A stretch of DNA of 64,000 nt, from the UHGV virus genome UHGV-0060833. One strand, written 5' to 3'. Source of the DNA: a virus. Of this stretch, positions 47,860-54,709 are shown piece by piece. The translations under genes and the position numbers were made by a program. The notes under the pieces were generated by a model. That model saw nothing but the letters and a program-made list of their open reading frames with translations. It was not told the DNA's origin and made no database searches. The stretch's first letter is position 1, and each line of letters begins with the position of its first letter.

Positions 47860-47881
47860 TAGTTACAGTGTCACTTTTAAT

Positions 47882-47913
47882 GCTGGTGGAGTGCGTCCCA
47901 CCAGCATTTTTTT
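47882..47913 (+). terminator. Intrinsic terminator
   Basis: gctggtgg-agtgcgtc-ccaccagc followed by attttttt. Confidence 0.7.
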
Positions 47914-47932: not shown

Positions 47933-48439
47933 TTGAGTATTTTCAATAAACACGCACACCAGGAACGTCCGTATATCGTCATAGTCGATATTGATGGAAC
48001 AATATCAGAGGCAACTGAAGACAGACTGCATTTGCTTCCGCCACCAGGTAAAGGTGCATTAACAAAGGACTGGAACGAGTTTAATCTCGCCTGTGACACC
48101 GATACTCCCATCACTCCAGTTATTGATATGGTGCGCCAGTTATTTAACGTTTACACGGTCTGGTTTGTAACCGGGCGCTGTGAGATCGCAAGGGATAAAA
48201 CACGAGCTTGGCTGCGGAAATACGTAACAAACGGGGCTGAGCCTTTGCTATCTATGCGTCCTGCCACCGATGACAGAAATGACGGCCCAGCAAAGATTGA
48301 TCTCCTTAAGAAAATTGGTCTAAGTAAAATCGCGTTCGCGCTGGAAGATAAGATTGAAGTGGCGCGTGTTTTCAGGAGTCACGGCGTACTTACGTTAATG
48401 GTCAGGGAGTATGAAAACGCGCTTCTCCATCAACAATAA
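47933..48439 (+). CDS. HAD-superfamily phosphatase-like protein
   Basis: TTG start after gaggag; IVDIDGT (DxDGT) nucleophile motif; 168 aa. Confidence 0.55.
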   Translation: MSIFNKHAHQERPYIVIVDIDGTISEATEDRLHLLPPPGKGALTKDWNEFNLACDTDTPITPVIDMVRQLFNVYTVWFVTGRCEIARDKTRAWLRKYVTNGAEPLLSMRPATDDRNDGPAKIDLLKKIGLSKIAFALEDKIEVARVFRSHGVLTLMVREYENALLHQQ

Positions 48440-48455
48440 TTGCTCTAATAAATCT
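48439..48455 (+). promoter_or_regulatory. C1 operator-like site overlapping the HAD gene stop
   Basis: attgctctaataaatct, 16/17 match. Confidence 0.6.
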
Positions 48456-48536
48456 TGATTTTTAAAACAGAGAAAGTGAAAATAAAAACATGCCGCAAGG
48501 CGCGGCATGTATCCAATCAATCACTGGAGCTGAAAA

Positions 48537-48626
48537 TATGAACACGGCATTCAAAATCATTATGGCCACGATCTATTTCTGGCTGTTCTCTATCACTTTT
48601 GGCGGCATCGTCGCGCATGGGTAAGG
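48537..48626 (+). CDS. 29-codon hydrophobic peptide (candidate small membrane protein)
   Basis: MNTAFKIIMATIYFWLFSITFGGIVAHG; ribosome-binding site ggag 8 nt upstream; 8-bp hairpin in the leader (48491-48511). Confidence 0.35.
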
Positions 48627-48703
48627 GGAGTATATTAGCCATTTGGAACCCCACGATCTCTTGCGGGTTTAATAAAGAACCCGCAAGAAAAACACGAATT
48701 GGG

Positions 48704-51700
48704 CTATATTTTTCCGCCTACCCCTTTAAACTTCTCAATAAACGAGACGATTTTCTGGAAAACTGCCTGTTTTTTCGTTTTATATTGCGGATTCAACGGA
48801 CTAAGTTTTGGTAATGTTTCGTTTAATTCTGTGCCATTTTCGGTGGCGTATTCGCGTTTTAAAGACGTGCGAATATAGCGTTTTGCTGCTTCTTCATTGA
48901 GATTTTCTTCTTTTATCAATGCTTCTGCCTCACGTTGCTGTTCGCGTTGAGCAAACGTAAAGAATGCGTCAATGATGCTGGCTTTGTCCGGTAAGTCATC
49001 CAGGTTCGTTTGCTGAATAAAGTCGATCACCAGGCCCTCTTTAGCACGGTTCCCCAGGCTTGAACGAATTAAGCGTTTGACCTCTTCGATCATTTCGCCT
49101 TTGCCTTTATTTTGTCTGTTGTGTTCGAAAATCAGTCCAAGGATATAATCCAGGTTTATTTCCTGAGACTTCAACAAATCGACCTCAAAAACTACGTCAT
49201 CCCAGTCAGTGGTTGATTTATCTTTTTTCTCAGCTTCTTTCTCACGGCGCTGCCAGTCACGAATATCGTTATAGGCAGAACGATAATCCTGAATCTTGCG
49301 TTCAGCAGGGAGACGAATCATTTGCAATTCAGCGAACTTTTCATCATCCACATAATGTTCTGCTTTGAATTTTTCTACCGCAACAGGATCGCTAAGATCG
49401 ATTTGTTGCAGGGCTTTCAGCGTGGCAAATTCATCATAGTTTTGCAGGATGTTCTCGGCACGCAGGTATTCACCAAACAGTTTAACGAAGTCTTTCTTCT
49501 CTTTTTCACTTTCAATACTGGCAGGGTCAGGGAACCGTTGTTCCAGTTCTGAAACTATTGCCATAAAGCCGCGCTTAGCTTCACCAGTGGCAGCATCAGT
49601 AAAGCCTTCCATATACTCTGCATAACTCTTTTCTAACACCACATTTTTGGTATTTTTATCACCAAACAGCGTTATGGCATCAATGGTTGAGCGTTCCAGA
49701 TCCCGGAAAGTGACGATGTTACCGAAGGTTTTAGTAGCGTCATAAATGCGGTTTGTGCGGGAGAATGCCTGCATCAGGCCGTGAAAACGCAAGTTTTTAT
49801 CGACGAATAGCGTGTTCAATGTTGGAGCGTCGAAGCCGGTTAAAAACATCCCAACGACAATTAACAGATCGATATCCTGATTTTTAACCCGTTGGGCTAA
49901 ATCACGATAGTAGTTCTGAAAACCGTTACTGTCGGTGCTGAAGTTAGTTTTAAAATAGCTGTTATACTCACGAATTGCAGCGTCAAGAAACTCTTTAGCA
50001 CTGCTGTCCATTGCGCTGGTATCAAAAGTTTCATCGGAAATTTCACCAATGGCATTTTGTTCTTCATTGGCGGCAAAGGAGAAGATTGTTGCAACACGCA
50101 GCGGTTTATAGGTAGCCGATTTATTAGCTGCTTCCTCTTGTAACCGTTTAAACGTCGCGTAATAGGCTTTCGCGGCATCCACGCTACTCACTGCCAGCAT
50201 GGCATTAAAGCCTTTGGAACCTGGGAAAGTACGGTGGGTCTTCTGGCGGAAGTTATTCAGAATATATTGCGTAATTTCCTGTATACGCATGGGATGAAGA
50301 AACGCCTGCTGATTTTCAGCCGCACTCAGTTTTTTCTCGTCAGTTTCTGTCTCTAAAGACTTAAACTGTGGCCGCACATCGTTGTAGTCCACCTTGAATT
50401 TGAGCACTTTTTCGTCACGAATCGCATCGGTAATTACATACGAATGCAATTCACGACCAAATACGCTGGCGGTTGTTTCTGAGCCTAAGGCGTTTTCCGG
50501 GAAAATAGGGGTGCCGGTAAAACCAAACTGATAATAGCGTTTGAATTTCTTCTTCAGGTTTTTCTGCGCTTCTCCAAACTGGCTGCGGTGGCATTCATCA
50601 AATATAAACACCACTTGCTGATTATATACAGGCAGGTCGCTTTCTGCTTTCATCAGGTTATTGAGTTTCTGAATAGTAGTGACGATAATTTTGTTATCGT
50701 CCTTATCCAGATTTCGTTTAAGGCCTGCGGTATTTTCCGAGCCGTTGACGCTGTCTGGCGAAAAACGCTGATATTCCTTCATGGTCTGGTAATCGAGGTC
50801 TTTCCTGTCGACCACGAAGAAGACTTTATCAATAAAGTCCAGCTCTGTTGCCAGACGCGCGGCTTTAAAGCTGGTCAGGGTTTTACCGGAACCCGTGGTG
50901 TGCCAGATATACCCACCGCTTTCCGGTTTTGACCAGTTCTTCGCTGTAAAGGAGCTCTTAATTTTCCACAGAATGCGCTCGGTGGCAGCAATCTGGTACG
51001 GTCGCATCACCAGTAGCGTCTGACTACTGTCAAAAACGCTGTAGTTCACCAGAACATTCAGCAGAGTATGTTTCTGGAAAAAGGTGGCGGTAAAGTCTTT
51101 GAGGTCTTTAATCAGCGTGTTGTCTGATTTCGCCCAATTCATGGTGAAGTCAAAACTGTTTTTATCGCGCTTTGTGGTGTTGGCAAAGTAACGGGTATCG
51201 GTGCCGTTAGAAATGACAAACAGTTGCAGATACTTAAACAGGGAATTTTCGCTGTTAAAACTCTCTTTGCTGTAACGATGTATCTGGTTGAAGGCCTCAC
51301 GAATCGCTACACCGCGTTTTTTCAATTCAATTTGTACCAGCGGCAGGCCATTGACCAGAATGGTGACATCGTAGCGATTGGCGTGAGAGCCTGCCTGTTC
51401 AAACTGCTGGATAATCTGCACTTTATTGCGCATGAGATTCTTTTTATCTATCAAATAGATGTTCTCAAGACGCCCGTCATCAAAAATAAAGTCGCAAATA
51501 TAATCGATATGGATTTTACGGGTCTTATCCAGAATACCATCACTCGGGTTGTCCAGATACTGCTCCGTGAAACGCCGCCACTCGCTGTCATTAAACACCA
51601 CACCATTGAGGTTCTGAAGCTGTTCCCGAACATTGGCCAGCATCGCTGACTGTGATTTTACGGATATAAATTCATAGCCCTGATTTCGCAGGTCCTGAAT

Positions 51701-51820
51701 CAGTTCCCGTTCCAGGTCCGATTCGCTCTGATAGCTGTCGCCTGTTTGCTCAGCTTTGATGTACTTATCAAGAACGATAAAGTTATTGGATTCAGCAATG
51801 GTGTGTGTTTGATGAGTCAT
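48704..51820 (-). CDS. hsdR: Type I restriction enzyme R subunit (EcoR124-like, type IC)
   Basis: 1038 aa; helicase motifs including DECHR ([11 protein letters not shown]); separate from hsdMS by a 121-bp gap, consistent with its own promoter. Confidence 0.9.
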
Positions 51821-51941
51821 AGCGCATCCTTTGTGCCGTCTGGCAAGGGCCGGAAGGGCGTTAATGGTGACTTCCAGCGTGTAAAAAATAGTCTATATAC
51901 TGACCGGGTGTTAAGGTGGCCCGGTCGGTAGCAATGGTCAA

Positions 51942-53146
<1,205 letters not shown>

Positions 53147-53150
<4 letters not shown>

Positions 53151-54709
53151 TTCTGCACCTCGCAGCCTTCAATTTCAGCCACAATCGCATCAATATCTTT
53201 GCGCAATTGGTCGATTTTGCTGACGGTGGTTTTCAGTTCGGCATTCAGTTCAGTGATATCTACAACTTCGCGGGTATCTTTGGCTTCCACATAGCTGCTT
53301 ACCGACAGGTTATAGTCATTCGCGACAACAGTCTCAAACGCAACAGATTTCGCCAGATGAGCAACATCTTCCTTGCTGGCAAATACCTGCATAATTTTTT
53401 CTATATGGGCATCGGTCAGGATATTGTTGTTAGTCTCTTTTTTGAACAGTTCGCTGGCGTCAATAAACTGAACGTTGGTATCCGTTTTATGTTTAGACAG
53501 AACCAGAATGTTTACGGCAATGGTGGTGCCAAAGAACAGGTTCGGTGCCAGTGAAATCACGGTTTCGACATAGTTATTGTCGACCAGATACTGACGGATT
53601 TTCTGCTCCGCGCCGCCACGGTAAAAAATGCCCGGGAAGCAGACAATCGCAGCACGACCTTTGGCAGAAAGATAGTTCAGCGCATGTAATACAAACGCAA
53701 AGTCAGCTTTGGATTTGGGGGCCAGAACGCCAGCCGGGGCAAAACGTTCATCGTTAATCAGCGTCGGGTCATCGCTGCCAATCCATTTCACCGAATACGG
53801 CGGGTTAGAAACGATGGCATCAAACGGTTTTTCATCTCTGAAGTGCGGCTCAGTCAGCGTATTGCCCAGCTTGATATCAAACTTGTCGTAGTTGATGTTG
53901 TGCAAAAACATGTTCATACGCGCCAGGTTATAGGTCGTATGGTTGATTTCCTGACCAAAAAAACCTTCTTCGATGATATGGTTATCAAACTGTTTTTTCG
54001 CCTGCAACAACAGCGAACCGGAACCTGCTGCCGGGTCGTAGATTTTGTTAACGTGGGCCTGGCCGTGCATTGCCAGTTGTGCAATCAGCTTAGAGACGTG
54101 CTGCGGTGTAAAGAACTCGCCGCCTGACTTACCGGCATTCGCGGCATAGTTAGAAATCAGGAACTCATAGGCATCGCCGAACAGGTCAATCTGATGTTCG
54201 TTAAAGTCGCCAAGCTTTAACCCTTCAACCCCTTTCAGAACCGCGGCCAGGCGGGCATTTTTATCCTTAACGGTGTTACCCAGGCGGTTACTGGTGGTAT
54301 CGAAATCAGCAAACAAACCTTTGATGTCAGCTTCTGAAGGGTAACCGTAAGCAGAACTTTCGATAGCAACGAAGATGCTGTTTAAATCCGCATTCAGTCT
54401 GTCATTGGTATTTGCTTTCGCAGCTACGTTGCAGAAAAGCTGACTGGGGTAGATGAAGTAGCCTTTAGTTTTGATGGCATCGTCTTTAATGTCATCAGTA
54501 ATTACGCTGTCATCCAGTTTCGCATAACAGATACTGTCATCACCGGCTTCCATATGGCTGGAAAAATTTTCGCTGATAAAACGGTAGAAAAGTGCGCCCA
54601 GAACGTATTGCTTAAAATCCCATCCATCGACCGAACCCCTGACATCGTTAGCAATTTGCCAGATTTGACGATGAAGCTCTGCACGTTGTTGAATACTTGT
54701 CATTTTCAT
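53147..54709 (-). CDS. hsdM: Type I N6-adenine DNA methyltransferase M subunit
   Basis: 520 aa; NPPY motif ([11 protein letters not shown]). Confidence 0.9.

Follow-up and report, generated by a model that had tools for sequence, protein, structure and literature searches.

A conserved 28-codon open reading frame at the putative head of the C1-repressed pmgT operon of P1-like phage-plasmids, retained beside a type IC restriction cassette

Introduction

Bacteriophage P1 is one of the classic model phages, P1-like phage-plasmids often carry genes for resistance and defence, and the region after the pap gene in these elements is a recognised cargo hotspot. In P1 itself this region holds the pmgT operon, which begins at the C1 operator Op88 (OpmgT) and continues through pmgT, pmgU and pmgV (NC_005856, 84293-85916), and the pap-lxr / pmgT-humD interval has been described as a variable hotspot where type I restriction-modification systems replace pmg genes (PMC9603915; PMC6906374). 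The second system of direct relevance is the type IC hsd loci (EcoR124, EcoDXXI and EcoprrI), which the title of Tyndall et al. 1997 (Mol Microbiol 23:729, as given in the reference list of PMC12707154) describes as flanked by P1 DNA. Here we examine this interval in the virus genome UHGV-0060833, a P1-like phage-plasmid, using a stretch of 64,000 nucleotides (nt) that we refer to as the window, and focus on a small open reading frame (sORF) of 28 sense codons that follows the operator. While the hsd swap is already known, the sORF is uncharacterised.

The locus shares with the P1 pmgT operon an orthologous operator, promoters, hairpin, Shine-Dalgarno (SD) sequence and sORF, but the operon body is missing in the window, where a convergent hsdMSR cassette is found instead, and residue 11 of the sORF peptide is T (a rare allele) rather than the A of P1 and of the consensus of relatives. 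With the type IC loci it shares an HsdR carrying EcoR124_C, phd-doc upstream of hsdM and the Op88 region downstream of hsdR; here, however, the cassette lies within an otherwise complete P1-like phage-plasmid, whereas IncF conjugative plasmids have only an IS1-truncated 84-nt remnant of the sORF. Our tentative explanation, to which we give somewhat less than an even chance, is that the sORF is translated as the first cistron and coupling device of a C1-gated pmgT operon and that the window retains it as a vestigial stub.

Results

The sORF is the first frame of the P1 pmgT operon

A previous, sequence-only reading of the locus had described a small hydrophobic peptide gene wedged between a HAD phosphatase gene and hsdR. 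All of the features it listed are present where it placed them, and both neighbours were named correctly, the upstream gene being P1 pap and the downstream, convergent gene encoding HsdR with an EcoR124_C domain. The parts of the locus are as follows.

47933-48439, plus strand: pap, a HAD-family polynucleotide-phosphatase-like gene (Pfam HAD_PNKP, E = 7.8e-12; 97-98% nt identity to the annotated pap of P1 and P7)
48439-48455, plus strand: C1 operator Op88 (OpmgT of P1), orthologous to the P1 protein_bind feature
48440-48483, plus strand: predicted sigma-70 promoters P2pmgT and P1pmgT, transferred by alignment from the P1 annotation
48488-48510, both strands: hairpin 1, from folding and terminator scans
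48488-48598, strand-neutral: block conserved at the nucleotide level (hairpin 1, leader, SD, ATG and codons 1-20), from haplotype diversity
48526-48529, plus strand: SD sequence GGAG, 8 nt before the ATG at 48538
48538-48624, plus strand: sORF, 28 sense codons followed by TAA (48622-48624), translated as MNTAFKIIMATIYFWLFSITFGGIVAHG and intact in almost all relatives
48622-48628, strand-neutral: module junction; P1 homology stops after TAAGGGG, and alternative cargo and deletion types diverge directly after the TA of the stop codon
48659-48688, strand-neutral: hairpin 2, an element of the hsd cassette in the hsdR 3' untranslated region (UTR), absent from P1 and, by folding, not a canonical terminator
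48704-54709, minus strand: type IC (EcoR124-family) hsdR (48704-51820), hsdS (51942-53150) and hsdM (53147-54709), assigned by Pfam domains and followed by phd-doc

A 461-nt query centred on the locus matched P1, P7, SJ46, RCS47 and 874 plasmid records at 90-100% identity. The upstream genes pmgS and pap are the same backbone genes as in P1, pap being the last of the conserved backbone ahead of the variable region, and the similarity to P1 and P7 (97-98% identity) continues until 4 nt beyond the sORF stop. The sORF is intact in P1, where it is unannotated in the reference record and where its TAA sits within TAAGGGGGATGCATG, the SD and start of pmgT. It is therefore not a stand-alone gene but the conserved first frame of the P1 pmgT operon, left behind when hsd replaced the operon body.

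Sequence comparison indicates that an inverted, convergent hsdMSR cassette replaces pmgT-humD, with the result that the promoter, leader and sORF remain as an orphaned stub. The cassette is of type IC, its proteins matching Pfam EcoR124_C (1.5e-71), HSDR_N, Methylase_S and N6_Mtase, and its far end meets P1 sequence again precisely at the stop codon of humD, immediately ahead of the phd promoter. The P1 record notes homology of positions 84263-84482 to DNA downstream of the EcoDXXI and R124/3 hsdR genes. On about 280 conjugative or mobilisable IncF-type plasmids, and on some chromosomes, the only part found beside a type IC hsdR is the 84-nt remnant (48545-48628, codons 3-28 plus TAAGGGG), cut by IS1; the E. 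coli ST131 IncF plasmid p56 (L249) is an example, and these are the same 84 nt that the P1 record marks as homologous to R124/3. Overall, 564 of 5,426 complete E. coli genomes carry the full sORF cassette and about 320 more carry part of it, typically the IS1-truncated remnant by hsdR on IncF plasmids.

Expression would be gated by C1 at Op88

The near-consensus C1 operator proposed to overlap the stop of the upstream gene is present at 48439-48455 (ATTGCTCTAATAAATCT). It agrees at 16 of 17 positions with the C1 consensus ATTGCTCTAATAAATTT, a 17-bp asymmetric site, and its first base is the final base of the pap stop TAA (48437-48439). Operator-like sites with at most three mismatches number 14 in the window, against 0.3 expected by chance. 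By alignment the site is orthologous to the one the P1 record lists as "monovalent C1-controlled operator OpmgT; former Op88" (P1 84293-84309), and the P1 allele is identical, with C at position 16; the operator itself is thus already known from P1. In that record the operator lies across the -35 boxes of two predicted promoters, and pmgT, pmgU and pmgV are the genes under its control. In the window, predicted P2pmgT has its -35 box TTGCTC at 48440-48445 and its -10 box TAAAAC at 48463-48468, while predicted P1pmgT has TTGATT at 48455-48460 and GAAAAT at 48478-48483, and from these promoters transcription would be expected to start near 48490. The orthology with OpmgT supports the suggestion, made earlier from the letters of the sequence, that repressor control would restrict expression to conditions in which C1 is lifted. 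Of the 17 operator positions, 15 vary somewhere among the haplotypes of related loci, and the diversity of the operator-promoter region equals that of spacers that look neutral.

The 28-codon frame, not a longer one, is conserved

We gathered 248 related loci from IMG/VR, metagenomes and genomes, leaving out L247, a chance pattern match in a Chloroflexia genome; these represent about 103 distinct 440-nt haplotypes, 101 of which align without gaps. Part of the loci were retrieved by the hairpin sequence itself, so that conservation of the hairpin is partly by construction, while a Pap-anchored set of loci gave the same conservation pattern beyond it. The short open reading frame (ORF) and the good ribosome-binding site reported earlier both hold up in this collection: all 101 haplotypes have the same GGAG and ATG, 100 of them end the frame with TAA and one with TAG, and the frame is open in all but one of the approximately 103 haplotypes, the exception (L058/L162) having an insertion. 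Apart from that haplotype the 87-nt sORF is free of frameshifts and nonsense changes, while the adjoining leader tolerates the loss of 4 nt and the gain of 2 nt, and the in-frame extension upstream of the sORF has a nonsense change.

A longer frame of 44 amino acids (aa), starting from an ATG at 48490 inside hairpin 1, has been annotated in phi456 (Orf75), SJ46 (J46_0098, "membrane protein") and RefSeq (WP_001312275.1) under the labels "hypothetical" or "membrane protein". We rejected this candidate: a CAA to TAA change interrupts it in 10 of 101 haplotypes and leader indels break its frame, and the annotated start is for these reasons probably wrong. Of the two candidate frames, only the 28-codon one is conserved.

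Junctions spare the sORF

All cargo types keep the 28 sense codons. The pmgT-type and hsd-type elements share TAAGGGG and part beyond its last base, 4 nt past the stop. In six independent variants formed by deletion or fusion (L019, L250, L252, L253, L254 and L255) the divergence comes directly after CATGGGTA, which ends in the TA of the sORF stop. In these variants CATGGGTA is followed by the sequences below.

L019: GTTCGG; the stop becomes TAG, and the GTG start of pmgU follows 4 nt later
L250/L251: TTCGAG
L252: CTGGGT; the end of the extended ORF overlaps the start of the next gene
L253: TACCGT; the sole case in which the partner is not preceded by TA
L254: CCCGAT; the end of the extended ORF overlaps the start of the next gene
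L255: TCAGAA; the deletion reaches just upstream of humD

A search of other loci identified the continuations as internal backbone or cargo sequences that are normally preceded by ...TA in five of the six cases, and the variants are accordingly deletions from the TA of the sORF stop to another TA. Several natural variants lengthen the peptide by 9-37 residues, and in L019, L252 and L254 an ORF that is now shorter or longer runs up to, or into, the start of the gene that follows. This is the pattern that selection for intact gene boundaries and translational coupling would leave. All eight continuations, of which two are cargo replacements and six are deletions, nonetheless set in at a single nucleotide or no more than four bases from it (CATGGGTA|N), and such single-nucleotide precision exceeds what boundary selection obviously explains. 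This leaves room for another explanation, one that we consider highly doubtful, in which the Op88 promoter, leader and sORF form a conserved adaptor for cargo expression at a nucleotide-precise recombination hotspot, possibly with a dual-function RNA. In that case a sequence-specific exchange or deletion mechanism could act beyond selection alone, and the 110-nt block could serve as both mRNA and antisense target, gating expression of the cargo or of hsdR once C1 is lifted. A symmetric site-specific recombination site was considered separately and rejected, since no motif is common to the left junction of hsd and the right one at the humD stop codon.

The strongest constraint lies at the nucleotide level

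Variable sites make up 19% of 48488-48598, compared with 61-70% of the operator-promoter region, the pmgS-pap spacer and the last eight codons, and the 90 nt at 48501-48590 are the lowest-diversity window in 2.1 kb (nucleotide diversity 0.0057 versus a median of 0.033). The third positions of codons 2-20 are variable in 2/19 cases; the corresponding figures are 76/168 for pap (p = 0.003) and 6/8 for codons 21-28 (p = 0.002). Hitch-hiking or a sweep was rejected as the cause of the low diversity, since diversity is high immediately beside the junction (48599-48628) and falls at a greater distance from it. Constraint is thus strongest from hairpin 1 to codon 20, and the block is compatible with either a translation-initiation region or an RNA element overlapping the ORF. 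Synonymous constraint at the 5' ends of genes is well established.

At the level of the peptide, the sORF contains 8 synonymous and 14 non-synonymous changes, a ratio of non-synonymous to synonymous polymorphism (pN/pS) of about 0.4-0.5 (binomial p = 0.09-0.24, depending on the assumed transition bias). In a smaller set of 59 haplotypes the sORF had a pN/pS of 0.38, which lies between that of pap (0.20) and those of the alternative frames (0.73-0.99). The frequent polymorphisms (48615, 48609 and 48606) are synonymous and the non-synonymous ones mostly rare, with the exception of G23S in 8 haplotypes.

These data bear most directly on the possibility that a non-coding element is what selection maintains, namely that the RNA or DNA from hairpin 1 to about 48598 acts as a structured 5' leader, a small RNA, or a minus-strand terminator with its upstream sequence, the ORF being fortuitous or its product irrelevant. 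Such an element would account for constraint that is equal at all codon positions, for the position of the diversity minimum inside the block, for the lack of a significant synonymous excess and for the tolerance of C-terminal extensions, and hairpin 1 is a textbook terminator on the minus strand. It would leave unexplained why an invariant SD is ideally spaced from an invariant ATG, why the frame is kept while the adjacent leader has indels, why most frequent changes are synonymous and why every junction spares the last sense codon; nor does the region match an Rfam family. Searched at a permissive threshold, Rfam returned sub-threshold chance matches only, the best being GcvB at 16.5 bits versus a gathering score of 42. 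On balance we regard a purely non-coding element as unlikely, if deserving of attention.

Constraint is relaxed where the sORF is orphaned

The consensus peptide is retained in 65 of 69 pmgT-type haplotypes but in only 17 of 31 hsd-type haplotypes (Fisher p = 8e-6), and operators depart from the consensus in 6/69 and 10/31 of these, respectively (p = 0.006), while diversity at the 3' end of pap is equal in the two groups. Among hsd-type haplotypes the peptide is altered in 45%, including G22D and G23D in the helix; one pmgT-type haplotype has a helix change, L16Q. That variants are commoner where the sORF is orphaned suggests that the sORF cassette owes its value to the operon that follows it, and argues against an autonomous toxin or exclusion peptide, both of which were among the earlier proposals.

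With a best 19-residue sum of -0.5 kcal/mol on a simple Hessa scale and a grand average of hydropathy (GRAVY) of 1.2, hydropathy calculation indicates that the 28-aa product can form one transmembrane helix, in line with what had been proposed. The peptide, which the earlier reading had proposed to look for in other P1-like genomes, is present in every P1-like element that reaches this position, whatever its cargo. Beyond these elements, searches that used the 44-aa frame as query returned no distant homologues among 5.8 billion proteins (word-indexed) or 1.84 billion representatives (full HMMER), all matches being at least 89% identical; Pfam, NCBIfam, PHROGs and PADLOC gave chance-level matches at most (E <= 1-10), none of them placing the peptide in a known toxin family such as Hok/Gef, Ldr, Ibs, ShoB, TisB, DinQ, Zor or Fst; and DNA homologues more divergent than about 93% identity were not found when phages and plasmids were searched by blastn in "distant" mode. 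A Citrobacter plasmid with a 33%-identical Pap is not syntenic, and the PmgT homologues scattered in unrelated phages lack the sORF.

An early membrane effector that acts alone after derepression, for example by excluding superinfecting phages, modulating a host membrane protein or mildly depolarising the membrane, would fit the possible transmembrane helix, the C1-gated early expression, the presence of the peptide with any cargo and the number of E. coli genomes that carry the full sORF cassette. We nevertheless consider it decidedly improbable, given how often the peptide is altered in hsd-type haplotypes, the C-terminal extensions that are tolerated and the absence of homologues below 89% identity. 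The neighbouring genes pmgT, pmgU and pmgV, furthermore, were non-essential for P1 lytic growth in a CRISPR interference screen that had the sORF outside its targets (PMC10695390), and for this reason a strong phenotype is not expected.

Hairpin 1 is a terminator on the minus strand

The leader hairpin had been described as having an 8-bp stem; the hairpin stands, at 48488-48510 (ACATGCCGC-AAGGC-GCGGCATGT), and we count 9 bp in its stem. In a 47-nt context it folds with -18.5 kcal/mol (z = -4.6). On the minus strand hairpin 1 is followed by TTTTTATTTT, which makes it a canonical intrinsic terminator in the window and P1 alike, a feature not seen in the earlier reading. The terminator scan placed it at 48510-48478, with 10 pairs (6 G-C), the tail TTTTATTTTC and a T-tract at 48487-48478, whereas plus-strand hairpin 1 and hairpin 2 on either strand lack the properties of a Rho-independent terminator. 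Only two sites in hairpin 1 are variable in the 101 haplotypes, and its stem changes C48496T and C48503T retain a G.U pair in the plus-strand RNA only. On the plus strand the hairpin lies at the predicted +1 of P1pmgT and would be a 5'-terminal stem-loop. Stem-loops at this position are classic mRNA stabilisers.

The second hairpin noted between the ORF and the hsdR end is also present; its stem of 12 bp has z-scores of -4.3 (plus strand) and -4.6 (minus strand), is followed by a U-tract on neither strand and is conserved in 31 hsd-type haplotypes. We read it as an hsdR 3'-UTR structure because G.U pairs extend its stem solely in the minus-strand RNA. Since hairpin 1 is the sole canonical minus-strand terminator downstream of hsdR in the window, the hsdR transcript probably runs antisense across the entire sORF.

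The minus-strand terminator at hairpin 1 is kept in P1, though no minus-strand gene lies nearby there.

This arrangement brings to mind the type I toxin-antitoxin systems that the sequence-only reading had invoked. Here the sORF would be the toxin, a minus-strand cis-antisense RNA covering the SD and ATG and ending at hairpin 1 would block its translation, and this antisense function would fall to the hsdR 3' UTR in hsd-type elements. The peptide is within the range of type I toxins (<60 aa and hydrophobic, versus 28 aa and GRAVY 1.2), the terminator stands immediately upstream of the SD in P1 as well, no other canonical terminator follows hsdR in the window, and two-strand-like nucleotide conservation is limited to the region that such an RNA would cover; a candidate minus-strand RNA of 73-85 nt folds into three stem-loops (z = -3.1). 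Against this, consensus and relaxed weighted scans of the window and P1 found no sigma-70-like minus-strand promoter reaching 9/12 in the sequence shared with P1, the best candidate being CATAAT at 48564-48559 with a -35 box of 3/6 and non-optimal spacing. The SD is not sequestered in the predicted mRNA fold, both G.U-compatible stem changes favour plus-strand pairing, and there is no toxin-family match in Pfam or NCBIfam. Operator-weakening variants are common, which would be unexpected if derepression freed a toxin, and the P1 ORF opens an operon of several genes. A type I pair is accordingly very unlikely; beyond a small hydrophobic ORF none of its defining features could be shown, with no antisense promoter that reaches 9/12 and no match in Pfam, NCBIfam, PHROGs or PADLOC.

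The other earlier suggestion, a small lysis peptide, fares no better. The unit is early and C1-controlled, the P1 late-promoter -22 box (AAGTTACTT, at most one mismatch) was not found within 1 kb of the locus, and the peptide ends in ...IVAHG, without a charged tail. The sORF is not demonstrable as a toxin-antitoxin or lysis gene.

Neighbouring genes

Between pmgS and pap there is a strong terminator-like hairpin with a T-tract on the plus strand (47879-47908), which suggests that pap may not be simply co-transcribed with pmgR-pmgS from Op86. At the other end of the region, the central part of HsdS (52614-52649, minus strand) has three tandem TAEL repeats (ACCGCTGAGCTT, three times). EcoR124I and EcoR124II differ in having two versus three such repeats, which alters the spacer length of the recognition site, and the hsdS of the window would then be EcoR124II-like. 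Homologues of PmgT, which have an ASCH domain and are annotated as "RNA-binding", occur widely in unrelated phages whose hosts include Pseudomonas, Vibrio and Salinibacter. As a rule the match covers residues 1-232 only, and two genes are often annotated; P1 pmgT (L001, 3335-4264) may have arisen by fusion, or may have a junction between two genes inside it near P1 84900 (TGAATG).

Discussion

The above analysis places the locus at the start of the pmgT operon, an early operon of P1-family phage-plasmids that C1 represses. The locus comprises Op88, one or two promoters, a 5' stem-loop, a strong ribosome-binding site and a 28-codon ORF. In a lysogen, as annotated in the P1 record, C1 bound to Op88 would block the -35 boxes. 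When C1 is inactivated or absent, transcription would start near 48490, the 5' hairpin would probably stabilise the mRNA, as such stem-loops do in general, and ribosomes would load at GGAG/ATG and make a single-pass hydrophobic peptide. Termination at the UAA that overlaps the pmgT SD in P1 would mean that the sORF mainly feeds ribosomes to the downstream cargo by translational coupling. In the window, Op88-driven transcription would meet hsdR transcription head-on. The identity with P1, the invariant SD and ATG, the junctions that spare the ORF, the coupling kept in the variants and the relaxation seen when the sORF is orphaned all support an operon head.

Several observations weigh against this explanation. 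The transcription and translation of the sORF are deduced from sequence, P1 RNA-seq papers report annotated genes only, and the peptide sequence was not found in the searchable literature. The predicted pmgT promoters score just 8/12 and went unflagged by a 9/12 consensus scan, which flagged ATGAAA-18-AATAAT at 48411-48440 instead. The haplotypes are phylogenetically non-independent, which makes the Fisher comparisons of pmgT-type and hsd-type elements descriptive only, and purifying selection at the peptide level is not demonstrable. The few changes in the conserved block are mostly non-synonymous, so that the constraint could be purely on RNA or DNA; conservation to codon 20 exceeds the typical initiation-region effect; and the block remains conserved in hsd-type elements, which have no downstream gene to couple.

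If the conserved ORF at the head of the operon is translated, it would explain how cargo genes of unrelated kinds that insert at this position come to be expressed only upon derepression, and it would add one further phage small protein that is absent from the reference annotation. For the window itself the message is modest: a left-over operon head by a known type IC restriction cassette, not a new toxin system.

Three groups of known systems are instructive for comparison. TisB/IstR-1, DinQ/AgrB and SymE/SymR, which are LexA-controlled, resemble the locus in the hydrophobic ORF of about 28 aa, the promoter shut by a repressor and an antisense terminator placed so that a cis-RNA could cover the SD and ATG. 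The locus is not similar to them in sequence and lacks both a recognisable antitoxin promoter and the architecture of an untranslatable primary transcript; its sORF is the first cistron of a longer P1 operon, and constraint is relaxed when the sORF is isolated. KdpF, AcrZ, MgtS and PmrR, small single-pass membrane proteins of enterobacteria, are of similar length and hydropathy and likewise have no signal peptide, but the sORF peptide is not homologous to them, is encoded by a phage-plasmid and gated by a repressor, and has no known partner protein. Finally, leader ORFs with translational coupling, such as mok-hok and the overlapping stops and starts of phage operons, share with the locus a stop that overlaps the next SD or start, an overlap that natural deletion variants form anew with another downstream gene; here the coupling is predicted and, unlike in those systems, the sORF persists, largely conserved, even where there is no downstream gene.

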